From a virus (lineage: Duplodnaviria; Caudoviricetes): a stretch of 52,492 nt of DNA. Both the position numbers and the translations under genes were made by a program. The notes under the pieces are model-generated. The model did not search any database and was not told where the DNA came from. It saw nothing but the letters and a program-made list of their open reading frames with translations. This document shows positions 1,758-39,895 of this stretch, one piece after another. Position 1 is the stretch's first letter; each line of letters opens with the position of its first letter. The stretch is taken from IMG/VR virus record IMGVR_UViG_3300042922_000373, positions 1 to 52,492 of that record; one strand, given 5' to 3'.

Positions 1758-2120
1758 CTAGCGGCGAATCGCTTTCTTGATCGTGAGATTGGCGACGGTG
1801 CAGTCGCTCTGGTCTCCGTTGAGGAAATCGACCCCAACCCCAGGCTTCCAATTGAGGAAGAAGACTGATGCGACGAGCAGGTGCACGAACACGTCATATC
1901 GCTTTCCTTTCCGATAGAGGTAGACACGGTGGAAACCATCGGAATCCACACGGACTCGGAGGTCTTTCCCGCTCTTGACGTTTACTACTCGGCCGTAATT
2001 GCTGACAGCGTAGGTCCCGAGACCGTCGATGCCTTGCCAGTACTCGTCCATCACCGGCGGCTCTTCCGGGGGATTGGACATGTTGAGGGTGATGAATGAG
2101 ATGTGGCTTGGTTTGGCCAA
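1758..2120 (-). CDS. NUMOD4-HNH homing-endonuclease-like protein, degenerate active site
   Basis: WQGI..Y.VSNYGRV (NUMOD4); VHLLVA..F...VDFLNGD..D..VANL (HNH-like, catalytic His position is F). Confidence 0.75.
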   Translation of the reverse strand: MAKPSHISFITLNMSNPPEEPPVMDEYWQGIDGLGTYAVSNYGRVVNVKSGKDLRVRVDSDGFHRVYLYRKGKRYDVFVHLLVASVFFLNWKPGVGVDFLNGDQSDCTVANLTIKKAIRR

Positions 2121-2124
2121 AGTA

Positions 2125-2607
2125 CTACTCCTCTATGAACTCAAATGAATAGCCCATGTGGGATCTGCGTTCGCCACGCAGCACACGGTAGATACTGCTG
2201 TAATCCCCTCCGATATAGCGTGCCAAGTCCCTGACAGACTTGAACACTTGACCGGTCTGCTTGATGCGGACGGGCTTACCCCACGGTTCTTGCCGATCTC
2301 GGCGTATTGGTCGGTGGTCGTGAAGCCGTACCGACACATTAGTCACTCTGTTATCAGTTTGATCACCATTCACATTCTTAACAACAGCCCCATCTCGATA
2401 ATGGGGGTTGAAAGCTTGGGCTACAAGCCTGCGGATATAGAACTGTCGTACTCGGCCCCGGTGAGAAAGGGCGACTCGGAGATGTCCCTCGCTATTTGGA
2501 CTGGCTGCCAACTTCTTGCCGGTCTTGCGGTTAAGGACTTCCCCGTAATTACTCACAACGTAGTTCGGGTAGTCAGCAACTTCTACCCAGACTTCATCAA
2601 TGTCCAA
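2125..2607 (-). CDS. NUMOD4-HNH-NUMOD1 protein, degenerate active site
   Basis: WVEV.DYPNYVVSNYGEV; RRLVAQAF...VKNVNGDQTDNRVTN; C-terminal FKSVRDLARYIG...IYRVL HTH. Confidence 0.75.
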   Translation of the reverse strand: MDIDEVWVEVADYPNYVVSNYGEVLNRKTGKKLAASPNSEGHLRVALSHRGRVRQFYIRRLVAQAFNPHYRDGAVVKNVNGDQTDNRVTNVSVRLHDHRPIRRDRQEPWGKPVRIKQTGQVFKSVRDLARYIGGDYSSIYRVLRGERRSHMGYSFEFIEE

Positions 2608-3196: not shown

Positions 3197-3423
3197 TTAA
3201 TCCCTCCGCTAACAGACACCACGATGATCATGAGCGCCATGTACCCCAGTGCCCACCATCCGGCCGCACTCATGTTGCCCGAGGCCCACGCAGTGAGAAC
3301 ACCGCCTACGATGCTCATGATGATGATCACCGACGCTGCCAGAAGCAGGAACTTCATCGGACTCATGACGAGGATGCTGTCCTCGAGCCGGTCATACCAC
3401 GTAGATATCTTCTTCAATACCAC
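3193..3423 (-). CDS. small membrane protein (2 TM)
   Basis: TTGAAAGGAG RBS, GTG at 3423; two hydrophobic stretches. Confidence 0.7.
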   Translation of the reverse strand: MVLKKISTWYDRLEDSILVMSPMKFLLLAASVIIIMSIVGGVLTAWASGNMSAAGWWALGYMALMIIVVSVSGGIK

Positions 3424-3443
3424 GGTTTCTCCTTTCAAGAGAG

Positions 3444-3514
3444 TGGAGGGGTCGCACCAACCCGGATGTCAAAGCGACTCGATTCATCCGTTTATGAGTA
3501 GTCAATACGACCCC
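3444..3514 (-). ncRNA. CCA-terminated stem-loop RNA (acceptor-stem mimic candidate)
   Basis: 15-bp stem GGGGTCGTATTGACT/GGTTGGTGCGACCCC with G-U wobbles, followed by TCCA; inner stem CGGATG/CATCCG. Confidence 0.5.
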
Positions 3515-3516
3515 AG

Positions 3517-3605
3517 TATCTCTAGTGGGATTTGAACCCACGACCTGCCCGCCTCGCTGCCCCAATGAGGACCATGGCTGCTCTGCCAAACTGAGCTATA
3601 GAGAT
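3517..3605 (-). tRNA. tRNA-like RNA with an expanded anticodon arm (pseudo-tRNA, possible CAT anticodon)
   Basis: Acceptor stem ATCTCTA/TAGAGAT, TA-GCTC-AGTTTGGCA-GAGC D arm, AGGTC variable loop, GTGGG-TTCAAAT-CCCAC T arm; anticodon region is 32 nt instead of 17; no encoded CCA. Confidence 0.7.
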
Positions 3606-3840
3606 GGCCAGCCAGGTAAGAGTCCCTCCCAATTACCTGACGAACGGGAGGACCGGAGTATAGTTGCCAGATCTGTTCACCCCCCGGCTACTAAGATAAG
3701 GCATATCACTCCGGCCGTCCCGGGTTTCCATATGGCGTCCTTACTACTACCCGGCTTAGTTGTCCGGGCCAATCGAGTTAGGTCGCCTAATTAGCGCTTA
3801 CATGATTCCTCCAAGTTCGCAGGCTAAATCTCTGACGTTT

Positions 3841-3893
3841 AAAAGAATGAGAATACGGGGTGAAGTCAAGTGTAAGACCTTAACTCCACCCCG
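3841..3893 (-). terminator. strong hairpin, possible intrinsic terminator or RNA domain
   Basis: CGGGGTGGAGTTAAG/CTTGACTTCACCCCG 15-bp stem followed by TATTCTCATTCTTTT. Confidence 0.55.
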
Positions 3894-4038
3894 CCGGATC
3901 TCTCGTTACCCCCGTCGGGATAAGCTGAATCCTACTAGCTCTTCCAACCAATAACCGGATCAGGGCCTAGTCGGAATCGTTGTCTTTGACACAGGGGCTT
4001 TGGATCTTGTCTATTTCAACAAGTGCATATGTCGCTAA

Positions 4039-4142
4039 CATCACGTAATGGTGTTTACTGGTGTGTTGTCTTTAAACGGCTCACGATTTCCGTCCCATTA
4101 CCGCTCTGAGCTTAAGATGCTGTTTAGCCTCGCTCAGACGAG
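4039..4142 (-). ncRNA. pistol self-cleaving ribozyme
   Basis: P1 CTCG/CGAG; pseudoknot TCTGAG/CTCAGA; TAAACAG linker; P2 CATC/GATG; TTAAG; GCG; P3 GTAATGG/CCATTAC; G^T cleavage site at 4044/4043. Confidence 0.9.
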
Positions 4143-4145
4143 TTG

Positions 4146-4394
4146 TTACTTGGTCTTGAAGACGGCCTTGAAGCCTTCCTCGGACCAGGCCGTGACACCG
4201 GACGGCTCCACCACGACCCAGTCACCCTTGCGGAGACGAGTCGAGGAACTGTCAGTGCTCACGGAGACCCAGTTCCCACCGTTGCGAGCGTTCTCGCCGG
4301 CGTCCTTGACGAACTGGACTACGGCCGCTCCGTTGGATCCGTCGAACTGGATCGCGGTTGCGGCGACGGGCTTGCGAGTGACCTGGATCGTCAT
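4146..4394 (-). CDS. hypothetical protein, 'KP..A.Q...GDW...F' paralog family
   Basis: RKPVAATAIQFDGSN...KGDWVV...EGFKAVF; ATGA coupling with the upstream gene. Confidence 0.75.
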   Translation of the reverse strand: MTIQVTRKPVAATAIQFDGSNGAAVVQFVKDAGENARNGGNWVSVSTDSSSTRLRKGDWVVVEPSGVTAWSEEGFKAVFKTK

Positions 4395-4744
4395 GCTGCC
4401 ACGTACTCCGCTGCGAATGCCTCCGCCTTGACCCGGACGAACTCCGCGCCTGCCTTCTCGCGGTGATCTTCGCCGGCTGCGAAGTCGATCTTGAGGATGG
4501 TGTCGCCGACGGTGGCCACTCGCCAGTCGCGCTTGCCCCAGTTCTCGCCGTAGTTGCGCTGGAGCAGACGGACACGAGCCGGCCGAGTGCGCTCCTGGAA
4601 GATGCGGACCCCGTGACCGTTGGCCGCTCCGCCATGCCGGTTGATCCAGGCGACGATCTCTTCGACGTTGTCCTCGGTGACGGTGATCGCTCGGACGATC
4701 TTGTGGCTGCCCTTGTCGCGGACTGCCTTGGTACGAATTGCCAT
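4391..4744 (-). CDS. hypothetical protein, same paralog family
   Basis: RAITVTEDNVEEIVAW...VGDTILK...EAFAAEY; AGGAG RBS. Confidence 0.75.
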   Translation of the reverse strand: MAIRTKAVRDKGSHKIVRAITVTEDNVEEIVAWINRHGGAANGHGVRIFQERTRPARVRLLQRNYGENWGKRDWRVATVGDTILKIDFAAGEDHREKAGAEFVRVKAEAFAAEYVAA

Positions 4745-5200: not shown

Positions 5201-5821
5201 TTATCTGTCGTAGACGGGCTGGATCTCACTGGCCATGCGAGCACGCTGTTCGGCCTTGAGGGCGTCTCCGTTGGGACCGTGGACAGTCTGCTCGGAGCGC
5301 TTGGTCGTAACCTGCTCTCCTCGCTTGATGTCCTCGACGTTCCAGTACGTCACGCCGGCGTCAGTCGACATGAAGCGGCTGTCCCGACGGTTCTGCCAGA
5401 TGGAGTTCTTGCCGTCCCACAGTTCCGGGGCGTGTTTCTGCCACTCCGAGGGGTCGTCGGTGATCGGCGTGAGCGTCTGGTGCGAGAGAAGCTTGTTGAC
5501 GAGCTCTCTCGTATACAGTGCCGAGCTTCCCGAGTGACCCATGGAAGCGAAGATGGTGATGATCTCGAGGATCTTGTTGTTGAAATCCGGGTGGATCTCG
5601 TTGTTGTCGCCGCCCAGTCGGGCGAGCTCCGCTTTGGCATGACGGAACAGGTTGCTGTCCGGCTCCGGGGGCTCCAGGCCAGCAAGCGTAGCCTGCTCAT
5701 CGCGGATCTGCTTGTTGGTGAAGGCGCTGCATTCGCAGGTGCTCATAACACACTGGCCTGCACCGTCGTGGGCATGGTTCCGACTCATGTGACCGCAATC
5801 ACAATATGGGTTGTTAGCCAT
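5201..5821 (-). CDS. hypothetical protein with N-terminal Cys/His motif
   Basis: CDCGH...H...C...CEC; MGHSGSSA...LTPITDDPSEW...WQNRR; GAGGA RBS. Confidence 0.75.
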   Translation of the reverse strand: MANNPYCDCGHMSRNHAHDGAGQCVMSTCECSAFTNKQIRDEQATLAGLEPPEPDSNLFRHAKAELARLGGDNNEIHPDFNNKILEIITIFASMGHSGSSALYTRELVNKLLSHQTLTPITDDPSEWQKHAPELWDGKNSIWQNRRDSRFMSTDAGVTYWNVEDIKRGEQVTTKRSEQTVHGPNGDALKAEQRARMASEIQPVYDR

Positions 5822-8075: not shown

Positions 8076-11000
8076 TTAACTGGCGAACGCCTCGAAATCA
8101 CCGTACTGGCTGATCTTATCGATGGCCTTATCGACGAGCTTCTGGTAGTAGCTCTTGTCGACGTCTTTCTCCTTGCCGAGCTCCTTGATGGACTCCGACT
8201 CCAACCAATGGTAACCGGTGGTGCCCGTCACAGCAGCGAACTTGCCCGGTCCTGACTCCCGCATGAGGAGTCCACCACCCTTTACCACGGGAGTGAACAG
8301 ACCGGTCTTGCCGACGAACACCTTGGTGTCGTCATTACCCAGTGCCATCGGCGTGTCCTCGACACCCTCGAAGTCGAGCCAGAGGGGTGTGCGAGCACTC
8401 TTTGCCTCACACATATCCTTGAACTGGATCGCCTCCTTTGTGAAGAGCGTCTTCTTGACGAACGGGTGAGCGAACTGTGCCCCCGTTGCCGACCACGTTC
8501 CGATGAGCTTCGGCTTCGTGGCGTGCCAGCCGTACTTCGCGATGTAGACCGCGTCGTTGACCAAACACATCTTCTCGTAGGTGGCCTCGTGCACGAACTT
8601 GTACCCGAATGCGGCACCATATTCCATGACGAACTGGATGATCTCCGGAGATGCGTCCGGGATCTTGATGGAGTCCGTCTTGACATGCACTACCGGGAAT
8701 CCACGCGCCTCAACCTCGTACATCAGGTCGAGCATGAACAGCGCACCGATCTTGGCGACGATGTTGTCGATGTTGCGCGGGTCACGGAAGACATTGTCGA
8801 AGGATGCTGCCGTCAGACCGTAGACGATGTTGATCACGATCTTCAGAGCGTAGGAAAGCGCCTCAGCGATCTCCTCATCCGTCAGGAACTCGGCCAGCTT
8901 GCCGCCAAACATCTTCCGAGCATCGTCGAACCGCTTCTCCTTGATAGCCACACGAGCGGCCTTGAGGGTAGAGAAGTTCTCTGTGTACTCGCCGAACATG
9001 TCCATGATCTCGATCGACGTGGGATGCATCGACTCGATATCCAGCAGGACCACGTTCTCCCACATGCCTGGCTTGGCACGCACGAGTCCGCCTTCACCGA
9101 TTTCCTCGCCGCGGTATCGAGACACCATGGCTTTCTTCTCGGGGTCGTAGGCGTAGGTGTAGCCCTCGAACCTCTCAGAGAGATCCGGGATGTTGAACTG
9201 CGACTGCGGAGCACGGTTCGATCCGAAGATGATCCGAGCCGCGTGCTGCTGGGTACTCGAGTTGACCGAGAGTCCAGACAGTTCCGCAATGATCTGCCGT
9301 GCGATGAAGTCTCCCTTGAGGTGCAGGAAGACCACGTCCGTGGCGTTGGTATCGTCGATGCAGTACTCGACGACCTTCGCCCAGAGCTCCTTCGGAACCG
9401 GCTGGTCCCAGGGAAGTCCCAGTTCGTTGTGCTTGATCTCGAGCTCGATCTCCCACTTCTTCAGCGTCTGCTTCTTAGACGCGAAGTCGAAGATATCCGT
9501 GTACGAGAGGTTGTAGGCCTCACGGAACTTGGCATTGGGCGAGTTGTTGATCAGGGCCTGGCTGAGCTTGTAGAGCTCCTCGATCGTCCATCCGAGAGCG
9601 GCGGCGTAGATGATGTGGTTGTCGTAGCCACGGTTGTTGAAGCCGATGAGCTTGAGCGACAGAAGTGCTTCCACCTCTTGCGCCGACGGGTTGACCATCG
9701 CCGTCACCTGCTCCGACCCACTGTACTTCCAGCAGATCACGAACAGGTTGGGGAAGACCTCCACATCGAAAATAACCGGCTTCTCCTCATCGGGGAGGTT
9801 CGGCCGACCTTCTTCGTCACGGTCTTCGCTCTTGAACTTCATCGTCTGCATCAAGATGAGACACGCGTCCTTCTGGTGCGTGCTCTTCAGTGCAAACTGC
9901 ATGACCTTACCGCGCATATCCGTTACGTCATACTCGACACCCGAGTTGTAGGCCTCGAGGAGAACGTGGTGGATGAAGTCCATGTTCGGCTTGGTTGCGT
10001 CGTGCACTTCCTTACGCAGTGCTTTGGCGATGGTCCGGCGAAGGCTCTGCTCCGTGACTACTATGTTTGGATCGATCACTGTCTTCTCTTTGAGCTTCAG
10101 GCCACTGCTGATTGTGGCGACGGGTGTGTTGTTACAGCGGGAAAGTCTCCTTCTAAGGCTAGTGTCACCGGTGTAGACTTTAACCTCGACTCCAACATCA
10201 TGGAGACGGCTAAGCTCTTCAACGGCTCCGTCATAATTGTAATGGAGATGCACCCCATTACCGCTTTTACTGTACTCCGCGTAGGTTGGGGGCCAGTTTG
10301 CCGCGGCCTGTAGGGAACGCTCCAGGGATTTGTTTCCATCGTCATCCGTAATGTCAAAGTCAATGACGATGTGATTCGCCGGGACCTTGACGTAGTGCTC
10401 CTTCGCAGTGTCCAAGTCGGACAACACGGTGCTGACGACTTGATCGGGGCGGGGAGTGAACTCCTTACCCGTCACACGGTCGGTTCTTGGCGCAGACGAC
10501 CAGTACTTATTGGGCTGGCTCTCACCCAGCTTGTTGATCCTGGAATACTGCGCCGGAGCGGATGCGAACAGCTTGTCGAAGAGCGATTCCGTTTCGGTGA
10601 GCTCGAGAGTGAATCCGCCGGCGTTGACCTGCGTCACATTCTCGGGCACTGGCTTCTTGTACTTCGTCGCGTTGAAACCCGAGTACCAGTTACGGACTCT
10701 GGCGTCATTGACGACTGCTCGCTCCTCCCAGTTATCGAAGTAGTTCTTCAGTTCTTCACGGAACTTGTGGTAGGGCATGTCCCACTTGGTGCGGGTGAAG
10801 TCCAGCCACTCCTTCCAAAGCTCCCAAGCCTGCTTCAGGGTTGCCCCGTCCTGCTGCTCGAAAATATCGAAGTGGTACTCCACGTAGTTGAAGAACACGT
10901 CGGTCTGCATCATCATGTCGATGGGGACGTAGCTGTTGTAGTAGTCCTTCCCCATCTCCTGGAAGACCTGCAGACAGTGATGTGCGAGAGCTCCCAACTC

Positions 11001-15117: not shown

Positions 15118-15386
15118 TAGCGCTCCTTGATTCCTCGTTTGATGTCACGCGGAAATATCTCGAGGTGGTAACCCGCGAGATCCACAGCGACAGGAGGCAA
15201 GCCCTCGATCGCGATGGTGACCGTACGAGACTTGGCGACGTAACGGTACGACACCAGCTTTCCGACATACTTGAGAAGCGTGTCGGTCTTGATCGTGCCG
15301 TCACCCTTCTTCTCGAAGATCTGAACGGTCAGCACCTCGCCGATGTTATCCGGCTTGAGCATCAGTTGTGCGTTGTCGTCGGTCAT
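15117..15386 (-). CDS. hypothetical protein
   Basis: coupled ORF. Confidence 0.65.
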   Translation of the reverse strand: MTDDNAQLMLKPDNIGEVLTVQIFEKKGDGTIKTDTLLKYVGKLVSYRYVAKSRTVTIAIEGLPPVAVDLAGYHLEIFPRDIKRGIKER

Positions 15387-15610
15387 CCTTCCAGCTTCCT
15401 CCAGACGAAATAAGTGGACTTGCGGCGGTCGTCGTGCTTGATCTCGAACACACGGTCCGGATTCTCGCTGATGACCTTGTTGAGGATCGTCTGCAGTTCC
15501 GTGAATCCGTCGCTCGACATTGCATCGATATCGGAGTCTTTCAACTCCCGTGAACCACTGGGGTTGTCCCGAAGCTCCTGAGACAACCCCGCGTACAGCT
15601 TCTTCCCCAT
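15383..15610 (-). CDS. hypothetical protein
   Basis: AGGAG RBS. Confidence 0.65.
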   Translation of the reverse strand: MGKKLYAGLSQELRDNPSGSRELKDSDIDAMSSDGFTELQTILNKVISENPDRVFEIKHDDRRKSTYFVWRKLEG

Positions 15611-15618
15611 GATTTCTC

Positions 15619-16314
15619 CTAGTCGAGTCGAATGGTGGGCGGAAGATCCAGCAGGTACTGGTCGGAACGAAGGCGCTTCACCTCAGCGTCGCGCAGATCG
15701 TTCCAGCCCCAGCTACGACCCACGTAGTCACGGCCGTCGACGTCCGCTCCTACCATGTCGTACAGATCGGCAACGGTCACGTCACCGTACTCAGCGATGT
15801 GCTCCCGCAGAGCGTCGAGAGCTTCCTCGGCATCGCCACGGGTCTCGAGGATGACGTCCTCATACCCACGACTGCTCCGAGCCCGATCGCGAACCGTTCG
15901 ACGGTCATCACGGTCGTCATCGAAGTTCCGCCCTGAGTAGCGGTTCCTGTAGTTCGTCCGGTTGTTGACTCCGGAGAACGAGGACCCACCACTGTTGCGT
16001 CGCGCACCCTTCGACGGACCACTGCTGGTGCCGAAGATCGCGCGCTCGATGATCTCCTTGCCGGCGTCGACGATGAGGTCCTTGACTGTCGGCAGAATCA
16101 CGTCGAACAGGACGTACTCGCCCACCGTCTGTGCATCGTCGCCCTTGAAGGACTGCGCGATACGACGACCGAGAGGCACCCGTGTGGACACCTCACCCTT
16201 GATCACCTTCTTGGCTCGAGGCCGCTCGGGTTCCGCAGGCTGTCGACGAGCCGCGTCCTTCTGAGCGTGGCTGTTGCTGGGGTACCGCTTCTCGACTGGG
16301 TTTTCTTCGGGCAT
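15619..16314 (-). CDS. hypothetical protein
   Basis: YPSNSH...DVILP..KD...ETRGDAEE.L...YG.VTVADLYDMVG...GW..L; GAGGAG RBS. Confidence 0.75.
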   Translation of the reverse strand: MPEENPVEKRYPSNSHAQKDAARRQPAEPERPRAKKVIKGEVSTRVPLGRRIAQSFKGDDAQTVGEYVLFDVILPTVKDLIVDAGKEIIERAIFGTSSGPSKGARRNSGGSSFSGVNNRTNYRNRYSGRNFDDDRDDRRTVRDRARSSRGYEDVILETRGDAEEALDALREHIAEYGDVTVADLYDMVGADVDGRDYVGRSWGWNDLRDAEVKRLRSDQYLLDLPPTIRLD

Positions 16315-32750: not shown

Positions 32751-33127
32751 GCAGATTTCACCGCCTTCCATACGTCGTCTGCGATACGATCGAATACCGG
32801 CTGAATGGCCGGGTTAATAAAGTCTCTACCACTGACCCAACCGCCGGTGCCTGTGCCGTGGCCATACTGAAGGCCGATCACGACAAGGAATCCATTCTCG
32901 ACGTCATTGTTGGTCCAGTGAATTGACCACGACGTCTTGGAGCGTTGAACTTCATAGCCCCAAGACGCCGCAGCCAATCCGGAGTCGGACGGTGTCGCGC
33001 TCGCTAGCGCAGTAACTCCCTGCTTTCCATACTTGTCAAGTGCTCGGAAGATTTCCCCTGAGGACATCTTCATGAGTGACTTTTTGGTTCTGCGGAAGTC
33101 GCCGCTGCTGCTGAACGTGATACGCAT
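32747..33127 (-). CDS. HK97 gp10-like tail completion protein
   Basis: ATPSDSG..A.SW...LQYGHGT..GG.V.GRDFINPA. Confidence 0.7.
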   Translation of the reverse strand: MRITFSSSGDFRRTKKSLMKMSSGEIFRALDKYGKQGVTALASATPSDSGLAAASWGYEVQRSKTSWSIHWTNNDVENGFLVVIGLQYGHGTGTGGWVSGRDFINPAIQPVFDRIADDVWKAVKSA

Positions 33128-33146
33128 AGCTGACTCCTATTTTGAA

Positions 33147-33389
33147 CTAGATGGCGTCGAGATCTCCTCGAGGCCACAGCTGTCCTTCAGTTGGTGGGTG
33201 ATAGCTGGCGTCGATTGTGCCGACTGGCGCGAATGAAGTGATGGTTCCGAGATACGGCGCATCCGACGCCTGCGGGACAGACGTAAAGTCGCCATACGCA
33301 ACCATCAAAGTTACGGGGGCATAGTCCGTAACCTCTTCCAGCGTTGGAGGCGACTCTTCTACTGAAGTCAGATCTCCGTAATCAGCCAT
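33147..33389 (-). CDS. hypothetical virion-associated protein
   Basis: ORF in the tail module; internal YGD(L/F)TSV repeat. Confidence 0.55.
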   Translation of the reverse strand: MADYGDLTSVEESPPTLEEVTDYAPVTLMVAYGDFTSVPQASDAPYLGTITSFAPVGTIDASYHPPTEGQLWPRGDLDAI

Positions 33390-37744: not shown

Positions 37745-39895
37745 TCAGACCGTGAAGACCCACGCGGTCGTGGTGTTCGACGCGAGGTAGTAGCCGGGCT
37801 CTGCGTGAGCCGTGACCTCGGTCGGGCCATCGATGACGACGTCACCGGTCGCCTCGACACCGTCGACACGGTACTCCACGCCGGTCGAAACCGGGATGGT
37901 GATCGTGTCAGTCGCGCCGTCGAAGGACGGAGCCTGCGCCGTGGCCAGGGTACCCTGGTTGCGGGTGAGCACGAGCGCCGACTTCGGACGCGTGAGCGCA
38001 CCGGAGAGGCGGGTCTCCAGGAGGTACTTGTTCTGGTTGAAGTCCAGATCGAAGTCCTCGAAGAAGTTGAGCTCGCCGCCCTTGTTCGTGCCGAGCGAGT
38101 AGTCGATCAGGTTGACGACGATGCCCAGGACGGTCGGAGCCGCCTCGAGGACCTCGACAGCCACGATCTCCTTGACGCGGAGCTTGTCAGCCAGCTGACG
38201 CTCGGTGTCGTAGAGGAAGCGGCCCATCTTGTCCTTGAGCAGGAGCACGTCGGAGATGATCGCGTCGGTCGTGTACAGGGTCGGGGAGCCCGAGCCACGG
38301 TACTGCGAACGGAGACGGATCCACTCCTCCACGATGGTGTCCGGAGCGACGTTGGCGGGGAGCTCCTTCTTGACCACGTACAGGGCGTGGTCGTTGAGGA
38401 TGGAGCGGATGCCGATGCCGTCGATCTGACCCGCAGGGTCCTTGATCTTGTCGGTGTCACCCGTGGCCGGACGGCCGTCGCCGATGAGGATCGCGCGAGC
38501 GAGTTCCTCGTTGAGCATGAAGCGGATCTCCCACTTGATCCACGCGATGACGTCGAAGTCCGTGATGTCGATGATGTCATCGCGGTCGAGACGCTGCTTC
38601 TTGTAGATCGTGGTGGGGGACGTGGTGCGCTGCAGCAGCTGCAGGACCTCGTCCTTCTTCTCGTTGCCCTTGATGTAACCCTTGGCACGAGCCTCGTCGG
38701 CGGTGAGGTCGGCGACGATCGACTTGACCTTGGCCCACGGCTGACGCTTGACGGCGTCGAGGACCTTGGGGACCCACTCCGCCTGGCGAGCCAGCAGCTG
38801 GGGGCTGGAGTCGAGGTTCCGAGCTTCGGGGAAGAGGAGCTCGATGTTGTCGATGCCGTACGTGCCGGCGTGCTTGAGGATGGCGCCCTCGAGATCCTTC
38901 ATCTCGAATGCGTCTTCCATGATCTTCCGCATCCCGTCGTGCGAGATGAACGGCTTGGTTGCGACGGCGGTGCCGCCCTTGTTGGCTGCGTCTTCGAACG
39001 CGTTGTGATCGGTCACGTTGGAACCTCCAATGTTGTCGTGTGCGATGGATTCGTCGGTGCTGGTCGAGTCCGCATCGGCGGAATCGTCAGTGGTGTCACC
39101 GTCGGAGTTGGTGTCTTCGGCGTCGACAGTGGCGTCGGCGTCGGTGTCGGTCTCGTCGGCGTCCGCATCAGCGGAGTCCGCGTTGGTGTCGTCGGAGTCA
39201 GCGTCGGCATCGGCATCGGTGATGGACGAGTGCTCAACCGAGTCCTCGTCGTCCGTAGCAGCCTTACCCGCTTCCTTGCCCGCGATGAACGACTCGTTCA
39301 CCATGTGGGCGATGATGGCCTGATCCTTCGGGTCCAGACGATTGAAGCGGTCTTCGACCGTCTCGTCGCTGTCCGAATCGGCATCGGCATCCTCGTCCGC
39401 ATCGGTGCCGTCGTGAACGATGAACTCACCCGGGAACCGGATGAAGGCCTCGTCCATTTCGGTGACCGAATCGTCACTGTGACGGATGTAAACCTGCTCG
39501 ATCTCAGCGCCGTTGTTGGCACCACCGATCACGAGGCTGACTTCCTTCATGTCACCGTGGAAGATCTGGTTGCTGGTCCCCCGCTTGTCGAGCTCGTTTG
39601 CCCAGACAGACAGCATGCTGATGTCGCCGTTCTCCAGCTGCATCTTGGCTGCCTTGGCCTTGGTCGTCTGGTTGAAGAAACCATGGACGTAAGGCCCCTG
39701 AGCTCGGTGCTCGATGATGACGTGCCCAAGGACCTGTTCGGCGTCCTTGTGGTTGTGCATCCACACCAGGGGGATCTTCTTCTTGTCCTGATGTTCGAAT
39801 GCGCCGTGCTGGATGGTGTTACCGTCCAGACACACTACGCCATACTTGCTGGCCCAGCCGCTGAAATCAGGAGTTCGCGAATTGTCGTCTCCCAT
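37745..39895 (-). CDS. prohead protease-scaffold-major capsid protein fusion
   Basis: N-terminal DFSGWA...IPLVW.H.H..LG...LSVWA...EVSLV..GAN (HK97-type protease); acidic linker; HK97-fold capsid (LNEELARAILIGDG, DFDLDFNQ.KYLLETR). Confidence 0.9.
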   Translation of the reverse strand: MGDDNSRTPDFSGWASKYGVVCLDGNTIQHGAFEHQDKKKIPLVWMHNHKDAEQVLGHVIIEHRAQGPYVHGFFNQTTKAKAAKMQLENGDISMLSVWANELDKRGTSNQIFHGDMKEVSLVIGGANNGAEIEQVYIRHSDDSVTEMDEAFIRFPGEFIVHDGTDADEDADADSDSDETVEDRFNRLDPKDQAIIAHMVNESFIAGKEAGKAATDDEDSVEHSSITDADADADSDDTNADSADADADETDTDADATVDAEDTNSDGDTTDDSADADSTSTDESIAHDNIGGSNVTDHNAFEDAANKGGTAVATKPFISHDGMRKIMEDAFEMKDLEGAILKHAGTYGIDNIELLFPEARNLDSSPQLLARQAEWVPKVLDAVKRQPWAKVKSIVADLTADEARAKGYIKGNEKKDEVLQLLQRTTSPTTIYKKQRLDRDDIIDITDFDVIAWIKWEIRFMLNEELARAILIGDGRPATGDTDKIKDPAGQIDGIGIRSILNDHALYVVKKELPANVAPDTIVEEWIRLRSQYRGSGSPTLYTTDAIISDVLLLKDKMGRFLYDTERQLADKLRVKEIVAVEVLEAAPTVLGIVVNLIDYSLGTNKGGELNFFEDFDLDFNQNKYLLETRLSGALTRPKSALVLTRNQGTLATAQAPSFDGATDTITIPVSTGVEYRVDGVEATGDVVIDGPTEVTAHAEPGYYLASNTTTAWVFTV

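Follow-up and report, generated by a model that had tools for sequence, protein, structure and literature searches.

A probable structured non-coding RNA between a pistol ribozyme and a tRNA-like gene in a phage genome

The minus strand of positions 4043–3606 probably encodes a real structured non-coding RNA that belongs to no described family and is part of a leftward operon. The RNA is 438 nt long, lies directly between a predicted pistol ribozyme and a tRNA-like gene, and contains hairpins in which natural sequence variants have changed while the pairing has been kept. The window, which is the whole stretch of DNA analysed, is an IMG/VR record of 52,492 bases with an estimated completeness of 87%. 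So far it is an orphan, known from a single phage lineage, and its general importance is unproven.

The RNA island and its boundaries

The primase and polymerase genes are the only parts of the window with nucleotide matches among 50,697 phage records, being 72–77% identical to those of Microbacterium, Streptomyces, Gordonia, Curtobacterium and Arthrobacter phages. On the basis of these matches the window is taken to be an uncultured phage of an actinobacterium. It is a soil phage that resembles the actinobacteriophages. All large ORFs of the contig are on the minus strand, therefore transcription across 3606–4043 goes from high to low coordinates.

The ribozyme, the 438-nt RNA, the tRNA-like gene and a hairpin ending in CCA adjoin one another and thus form an island of about 700 nt of RNA genes (4143–3444) between tightly packed protein genes. 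The pistol begins 3 nt past the stop codon of an 82-aa gene. A homologue of Tad3, an inhibitor of Thoeris, is encoded approximately 1.1 kb upstream of the ribozyme (5201–5821; Pfam E 3.7e-31) and two NUMOD4/HNH homing-type endonucleases are encoded downstream of the island (Pfam/PHROGs). Because of these neighbours the surroundings look like an accessory region of the genome. The phage promoter motif is present in 8 copies in the window, none of which is near the island. There are exactly two copies of the sequence AAAGACAAC in the 52 kb of the window, both in the RNA island and 86 nt apart, and one of them is within the insert of pistol stem P3. The features of the island are listed in Table 1.

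Table 1. Features of the RNA island, with coordinates in the window and the basis of each assignment
Feature	Coordinates	Strand	Basis or description
Pistol self-cleaving ribozyme, full	4038..4143	-	Rfam RF02679 and sequence reading
Pistol P1	4142-4139/4132-4129	-	CUCG/CGAG
Pistol pseudoknot	4138-4133 with 4110-4105	-	loop UCUGAG complementary to CUCAGA
Pistol P2	4120-4116 with 4042-4038	-	GCAUC/GAUGU
Pistol P3	4101-4095 with 4051-4045	-	GUAAUGG/CCAUUAC around a 43-nt insert
Predicted pistol cleavage site, between G4044 and U4043	4043..4044	-	family architecture
Structured non-coding RNA, 438 nt (probable)	3606..4043	-	fold z-scores, compensatory variants, no Rfam family
Hairpin H1, CUUGU/ACAAG	4006..4023	-	5-bp stem, 8-nt loop; pair probability 0.99
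Hairpin HA	3942..3976	-	10-bp stem, 3 G-U pairs, apical mini-hairpin
Hairpin HB, UUAUCCC-GACG-GGGGUAA	3906..3923	-	7-bp stem, GACG loop
Hairpin HC	3856..3893	-	15–16 bp, 8-nt loop, U-rich tail; pair probability 1.00
Hairpin HD	3805..3848	-	U-rich strand paired with UUGGAGGAAU; minimum-free-energy fold only
Extended hairpin H5	3731..3788	-	tip CCCGG/CCGGG at 3768-3750
Long stem H6	3645..3722	-	15 pairs, 3722-3708 with 3659-3645, one C-C mismatch; branched interior
Hairpin H7, CAGGUAA/UUACCUG	3613..3639	-	7 bp, 13-nt loop
tRNA-like gene	3517..3605	-	Rfam tRNA model 49.2 bits; ARAGORN
Hairpin ending in CCA	3444..3516	-	located in sequence; last RNA element before the ribosome-binding site of the next gene

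The Rfam match to the pistol family (RF02679) covers 4143–4096 and scores 39.2 bits, above the gathering score of 34.5, with 0 nt placed in P3 by the Rfam alignment. The long P3 and the downstream strand of P2 were read from the sequence beyond this alignment, following the architecture given in the available passages of Harris 2015 (PMC4604425). In the ribozyme of the window, the loop of the P1 hairpin pairs with the P2–P3 junction as a pseudoknot and, on this reading, P2 and P3 are joined by the two nucleotides GU (4044–4043). A strictly two-nucleotide P2–P3 junction holds the cleavage site of the pistol class, according to the same passages (Harris 2015, PMC4604425), and the cut is predicted between G4044 and U4043 because of this family architecture. 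Such a cut would give the downstream RNA its 5' end, carrying a 5'-OH.

The tRNA-like gene has canonical arms, and its anticodon region is 26 nt where the Rfam model has 11. It is called by ARAGORN as a 90 nt tRNA-Arg(CCU). Its 5' end, between 3606 and 3605, would be an RNase P site that fixes the 3' end of the RNA. With a pistol cut between 4044 and 4043 and a tRNA-like gene starting at 3605, the unit is therefore 438 nt, 4043–3606. This region may yield two RNAs rather than one if the hairpin at 3856–3893 terminates transcription.

These boundaries agree with the preliminary description, in which dense RNA structure starting at 4038 had been placed between a ribozyme and a tRNA-like RNA: the Rfam matches are a pistol at 4143–4096 and a tRNA at 3605–3517, and the position 4038 corresponds to the pistol P2 strand at 4042–4038. 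The region had also been described as free of credible ORFs. Only four frames inside it reach 30 aa: two on the plus strand, which is the non-coding strand, with 89 and 64 aa, and two on the minus strand, with 32 and 31 aa. Neither of the plus-strand frames, which are the longest, has a Pfam or PHROGs match, and no credible ORF with homologues is present in the region.

Folding and natural variation

The minus strand of 3606–4095 folds at -176.5 kcal/mol (z -3.73), with none of 100 dinucleotide shuffles as good, while the plus strand has a z of -1.73 and 2 of 100 shuffles as good. For the minus strand of the RNA itself, 4043–3606, the z against dinucleotide shuffles is -4.37, compared with a mean z of -1.55 (sd 1.80) for 20 further stretches of 438 nt on the same strand of the genome. 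As one of these 20 scores lower than the RNA, the region is by thermodynamics in the tail of the genome, yet not unique.

All seven of the stems listed previously are found on the minus strand at their given positions. Taken over eight local helices and one 5-bp long-range helix, the minus strand has 67 Watson-Crick pairs, 11 G-U pairs and 1 mismatch, and the same helix positions on the plus strand have 67 Watson-Crick pairs, 0 G-U pairs and 12 mismatches. The earlier statement that several pairs are G-U on the minus strand only is borne out by this count, which is biased since the helices were chosen on that strand; the fold energy against dinucleotide shuffles is the unbiased measure. The asymmetry of the fold energies and the pattern of G-U pairs are the reasons for taking the minus strand as the RNA strand.

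The same observations bear on whether the region acts as DNA, the inverted repeats belonging to a replication origin, an array of protein-binding sites or a similar element. The G+C content of 0.47–0.51, against 0.60–0.67 in the upstream genes, the replication genes 4 kb away, and the confinement of both copies of AAAGACAAC to this part of the 52 kb would fit such an element. On the other strand, however, the 11 G-U pairs become A-C mismatches, and the fold-energy signal is strand-specific. One of the AAAGACAAC copies is inside pistol stem P3, and the region is placed between a ribozyme and a tRNA-like gene. A DNA-level element is therefore very improbable.

Within the fold, the strands of HA are UUCCGACUAG/UUGGUUGGAA, with 3976–3967 paired to 3951–3942, and H6 is the inverted repeat I1. 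The loop of H7 could pair alternatively with the 3' strand of H6, to which it is complementary; the alternative hairpin folds at -13.0 kcal/mol. HB has a thermodynamic pair probability of 0.06 and its support is comparative, not energetic.

Eight public sequencing runs contain part of the stretch, of which four were aligned at 80% likeness (X2, X3, X4 and X5). The variants are three sequences rebuilt from difference tables. X3, X4 and X5 cover the stretch in part, with X3 lacking cover over, for example, 3767–3873 and 4018–4089, and the X3 alignment has indels around 3942–3954.

In X2, a DNA run from soil, a single contig of 5783 nt spans 3302–4500 and differs by 13 substitutions and the insertion of one base. 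Nine substitutions are within 3864–3954 and none are in the 355 coding bases of 4146–4500. Six of those within 3864–3954, namely 3864 A>G, 3865 G>A, 3866 T>A, 3883 A>T, 3884 C>T and 3885 T>C, alter both sides of three consecutive HC pairs, 3864-3885, 3865-3884 and 3866-3883, all of which remain Watson-Crick.

The X3 run has a 151-nt contig on 3874–4017 that is approximately 85% identical, with 19 substitutions and 7 gap positions. On the RNA strand, the HB pair 3918-3911 is changed on both sides, from C-G to U-A, and the HB pair 3920-3909 is U-A instead of U-G in both X2 and X3. When rebuilt by program, positions 3930–3985 of X3 fold into the same HA hairpin as the reference sequence, except that C-G pairs take the place of U-A at its base. 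Four one-sided changes, at 3909, 3954, 3679 and 3647, toggle between G-U and Watson-Crick pairing. The change at 3647, in X4, turns a C-G pair of H6 into U-G, and that at 3679, in X3, turns U-G into C-G in an inner H6 pair of the minimum-free-energy fold. None of the substitutions in the variants breaks a helix of the preliminary description. H1 has no variation in the variant contigs, H5 is unchanged across 3731–3766, the portion covered by an X3 contig, and the single variant datum for HD is an additional U behind 3840 in X2.

The long-range pairs 3909-3997, 3911-3995 and 3939-3979 of the minimum-free-energy fold were rejected, as they are broken by the natural variants. The HB hairpin is preferred over these pairs; it is read from the sequence and was adopted partly because the variants fit it.

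Judged from these sequences, the compensatory changes in the three named hairpins, HA, HB and HC, show selection on pairing. Together with the difference in z between the strands (-3.73 and -1.73), this upholds the earlier proposal that RNA structure on the minus strand is under selection. It also weighs upon the alternative that the region has no function and is leftover spacer, its hairpins having arisen by chance or as hitch-hiking palindromes. A functionless spacer is favoured by the absence of conservation beyond close strains, which makes the RNA an orphan, and by the better folding of one control window in 20. Three adjacent pairs changed on both sides, another such pair in a second hairpin and a third hairpin that has been re-paired are not expected without selection, and a lack of function is accordingly given very little probability.

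A second X3 contig, covering 3616–3766 at the same depth as the first, has 1 difference in 151 nt. The RNA is in two parts: a 5' half (H1, HA, HB and HC) that evolves fast with its hairpins kept, and a 3' half (H5, H6 and H7; 3616–3766) that is almost invariant. Provided that the two X3 contigs belong to a single phage, the 3' domain has been nearly frozen, and the 5' hairpin domain has varied rapidly with its pairing kept.

The only run from an RNA library is X4, a soil metatranscriptome, which has one 151-nt contig at a depth of 2, on 3565–3715. This consists of the 3' domain of the RNA and the 5' part of the tRNA-like gene, and reads across the proposed RNase P site. It is a hint of expression, although it could be DNA carry-over.

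A passive, cis-acting RNA would account for part of these data. On this reading, transcription of the upstream operon would end at HC as an intrinsic terminator, with the pistol trimming the 3' end of that operon, and the rest would serve the tRNA-like gene as a long structured leader or consist of spacer hairpins protecting the neighbouring RNAs from nucleases. HC is a G+C-rich hairpin of 16 bp followed by UAUUCUCAUUCUUUU and passes a consensus terminator scan, the compensation in its stem would be expected of a terminator also, and the U added in X2 extends the U-run. In addition, no homologues were found and the relatives of the phage are without the element, as might be the case for passive RNA. 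The U-tract is interrupted (UAUUCUCAUUCUUUU), however, and the scan gives 1 site where 0.9 are expected in shuffles. Termination at HC leaves the paired changes of HA and HB unexplained, as it does the difference between 3616–3766 (150 of 151 identical) and 3874–4017 (~85%). There is no promoter motif after HC, yet the tRNA-like gene and the packed genes downstream of it must be transcribed. The passive reading is rather unlikely, and is the main rival of the explanation proposed here.

Searches for relatives

A structured RNA of this size in a phage might be a very diverged member of a known group, such as GOLLD, ROOL, tmRNA, a group I or II intron, RNase P RNA, a RAGATH or Drum motif, or a decayed tRNA array. 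GOLLD and ROOL are often beside tRNAs in phages, according to the available passages of PMC5737381, and other pistol-bearing phage loci hold tRNA arrays and tmRNA. Against this, a cmscan of 3300–4400 with all 4227 families of Rfam 15, using permissive filters and E<=10, places no family on the RNA, the matches being the pistol, the tRNA and two chance matches outside the RNA; in particular GOLLD, ROOL, OLE, HEARO, raiA, introns, RNase P and riboswitches give no match there. The Rfam scan that had been proposed with the preliminary description thus returned only the two flanking RNAs besides chance matches. No tmRNA was found by ARAGORN in the window or by Rfam in 3300–4400 at E<=10, and these tools do detect tmRNA in three other loci (L023, L026 and L034). 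Neither ARAGORN nor Rfam finds a second tRNA or cloverleaf inside 3606–4043, the only tRNA match being that at 3517–3605. A diverged member of a known group is hence highly unlikely. A resemblance to the conserved regions of RNase P RNA, looked for by eye, was dropped, as there is no Rfam RNase P match.

Homologues were sought at the nucleotide level in several collections. There was none by blastn of 3450–4200 against the 50,697 phage records, and none of the RNA by nhmmer and blastn in 14 loci (L002–L015), 11 of which are viral loci related by their polymerase at 45–49% identity. A polymerase search of metagenome contigs gave 12 further loci at 42–53% identity (L056–L067), and nhmmer found the RNA in 0 of these 12. 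Exact-word scans were negative in viral contigs, with one 20-mer and two 18-mers, and in 185,579 species genomes, with a 20-mer. A covariance model built from the single sequence of 3606–3790 (R1) matched only itself in 637,236 bases from 49 sources. Of the searches of viral contigs with flanking proteins, one gave three weak matches without an Rfam family at the gathering score and another gave none. A pattern of the pistol plus a motif had two matches in species genomes, which were dismissed as chance since neither has a pistol; one (L069) is coding and the other (L070) is an A+T-rich sequence before a gene.

The preliminary description suggested one or more undescribed ncRNA classes. The lack of an Rfam family is in agreement with this, but the term 'class' is not yet justified because no homologue was found beyond strain-level variants.

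The pattern for this pistol subtype is present in 40 stretches of viral contigs. The downstream sequence was inspected in 24 pistol-bearing loci, a set that includes the window and several duplicates. A tRNA is within 1.5 kb downstream of the pistol in 5 of the 24, three of which (L018, L019 and L052) are near-identical. Layouts like the pistol/RNA/tRNA order of the window are found in these three and in L023. Rfam identified tRNAs in 6 of 13 pistol loci and tmRNA matches in 3 of the 13. On these counts, pistols are often located in phage RNA-gene clusters.

Among the 11 polymerase relatives, one has a pistol in the syntenic slot (L005, which is the same contig as L028). This phage, related by polymerase at 49% identity, has in the same genomic slot as the window RNA a pistol followed by approximately 345 nt of non-coding RNA. 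Similar arrangements are present in L038 and L068, the RNAs of the three being 270–350 nt. The pistols of L005 and L038 have, by eye, a long P3 insert like that of the window; the P3 of L068 is short. The L005-type RNAs start with a conserved hairpin that has a AAGGAUAA loop and are closed by a long-range helix. They are a separate small family, without a link to the window RNA by nhmmer or R1, and they lead straight into a protein gene with no tRNA, unlike the window RNA with its tRNA-like gene. The two copies of AAAGACAAC in the window and two of UUAAACGACAA in L005 were considered as a family motif; this was dropped because in each phage one of the copies falls within the P3 insert of the pistol, and elsewhere the RNAs do not align.

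Proposed processing and comparison with known systems

In the proposed explanation, the island would be transcribed by read-through from the upstream genes. The pistol would then cut itself between G4044 and U4043, as its motif predicts, leaving an mRNA with a folded 3' end and a downstream RNA with a 5'-OH. Host RNase P would cut between 3606 and 3605, given the tRNA-like fold that follows, and the two cuts together would free a 438-nt RNA with a 5'-OH. This RNA is presumed to be stable. Speculatively, it may act in trans by binding a factor of the host or the phage, for instance as a decoy or sponge; such a role is favoured because of the frozen 3' domain, the fast-changing and structure-keeping 5' domain, and the anti-defence neighbour.

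The most extended form of this proposal is a new class of large phage ncRNA, self-excised with a pistol at the front and with RNase P, acting on a tRNA-like handle, at the back. Its invariant 3' domain would be the working part, its 5' hairpins would be caught in an arms race, and it would serve in counter-defence, as a decoy or sponge against a host nuclease or sensor, near Tad3. This is put forward tentatively and, taken whole, is doubtful. If true, it would give the pistol class a concrete natural job; the natural roles of pistol and of most other bacterial and phage self-cleaving ribozymes were still open according to the available passages of a 2019 review (PMC6765202). The locus, which is near an anti-defence gene, is a compact unit of a ribozyme, a 438-nt RNA with selected hairpins and a tRNA-like handle. 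Should the proposed excision take place, the locus would provide a defined substrate for studying the role of ribozyme-processed phage RNAs, and the division into an invariant 3' and a fast-changing 5' domain shows where mutation should start.

The available passages of PMC5737381 describe GOLLD and ROOL as large multi-helix RNAs of phages and prophages that are typically located by tRNA genes, are possibly co-transcribed with them and have no known function. The window RNA is likewise large, multi-helix, phage-borne and beside a tRNA-like gene. ROOL RNAs average 581 nt (PMC5737381), compared with 438 nt here. The window RNA differs from this comparison set in that it is headed by a pistol, has no Rfam match at E<=10 and has no family of homologues.

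Theta (HDV-like) ribozymes are situated directly after phage tRNAs and trim their 3' trailers, as reported in the available passages of PMC10879173, so that the RNA end proposed to be set by the ribozyme is one that host enzymes would otherwise make. Both these and the window pistol are small self-cleaving ribozymes in a phage RNA-gene cluster that are proposed to define the end of an RNA. The theta ribozymes follow the tRNA, on its 3' side, whereas the window pistol is upstream and would set the 5' end of a long RNA that is not a tRNA. No published pistol heading an ncRNA–tRNA cassette was found among the papers listed by the searches, although the many unnamed motifs in the supplements of Weinberg 2015 and 2017 could include a match. 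Large phage RNAs located next to tRNAs, and small ribozymes that define an RNA end in a phage RNA cluster, are kinds already known from the passages cited. What is new is an RNA that matches nothing described, its 438-nt size, its evolution at two speeds and its atypical tRNA-like handle.

Pairing and recurring words within the RNA island

Hairpin H7 has a 13-nt loop, GGGAGGGAC, whose sequence complements GUCCUCCC, the 3' strand of stem H6; both lie within 3613-3659 of the minus strand of the 438-nt structured RNA. On folding energies, H6 and H7 could face competition from an alternative hairpin of -13.0 kcal/mol. This alternative pairing is located shortly before the proposed RNase P site (3606|3605). 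Further 5' in the same RNA, the GGAGGAAUC-AUG-UAA sequence is sequestered in the minimum-free-energy fold by the U-rich strand 3' of hairpin HC, which resembles a terminator.

Exactly two copies of AAAGACAAC are found in the entire window and both are within the RNA island, one of them inside the 43-nt insert in stem P3 of the pistol ribozyme. The GACAAC word is present again in the loop of hairpin H5. In L005, a related phage with a pistol in the same slot, UUAAACGACAA occurs twice (15359-15369 and 15596-15606), and one copy is within the pistol P3 insert, as that insert was read by eye.

Coordinates of features in the window and in the compared viral loci
Feature	Sequence	Position	Strand	Remarks
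AAAGACAAC / GACAAC sites	window	4065-4073, 3979-3987, 3759-3764	(-)	
GGAGGAAUC-AUG-UAA	window	3797-3814	(-)	strong Shine-Dalgarno-like word, start codon, then immediate stop codon
Tad3 homologue	window	5201-5821	(-)	206 aa; Pfam PF25185, E 3.7e-31, residues 56-174
Two neighbouring NUMOD4/HNH homing-type endonuclease genes	window	1758-2120 and 2125-2607	(-)	
tRNA-Thr(GGU)	window	39076-39169	(+)	94 nt; ARAGORN; within 723-aa minus-strand ORF
tRNA array, tmRNA, pistol (in that order)	L023	about 8100-8700	(-)	
tRNA array, tmRNA, pistol (in that order)	L026	about 9520-10120	(+)	
Pistol-linked RNA	L028 = L005	8009-8285 = 15401-15677		one contig
Pistol-linked RNA	L038	7575-7930		
Pistol-linked RNA	L068	about 770-300	(-)	

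Genes near the island and features elsewhere in the window

The Tad3 family is an inhibitor of Type I Thoeris, and the matching gene is approximately 1.1 kb upstream of the ribozyme. The RNA island may therefore belong to an anti-defence region. The NUMOD4/HNH endonuclease pair is approximately 0.8 kb downstream of the island.

Away from the island, a 438-nt control segment of the minus strand (~32855-33292) folded much more stably than its shuffles, with a z of -6.96 (15 shuffles), which is below that of the 438-nt RNA itself. This segment separates the 1606-aa gene from the large gene that follows. The tRNA-Thr(GGU) was not reported by Rfam at the gathering score and is therefore probably a false call.

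Pistol ribozymes of other phages

Many different contigs of soil run X3, a public sequencing run, match only the pistol core (window 4094-4145) before continuing into unrelated sequence, with a summed depth of up to 74. Judging from these contigs, the pistol subtype of the window is common among the phages of that sample.

A 191-nt block in the non-coding stretch 3' of the pistol is common to L023 and L026, with 90.6% identity between the two. At the gathering score, Rfam assigns this block to no family. The RNA of L038 has no family match in an Rfam search at E<=10. In the pistol-linked RNA of L028/L005, L038 and L068, a conserved hairpin with a AAGGAUAA loop is found immediately 3' of the pistol cut site. 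Two of these phages have CGGUG/CACCG as the stem; the other has CUGUG/CACAG. A long-range helix, in which both partners of one pair are changed, closes the 270-350-nt RNA of L028 and L038, which leads into a protein gene. The pistol-linked RNA of L028/L005, L038 and L068 is a family separate from the RNA of the window.
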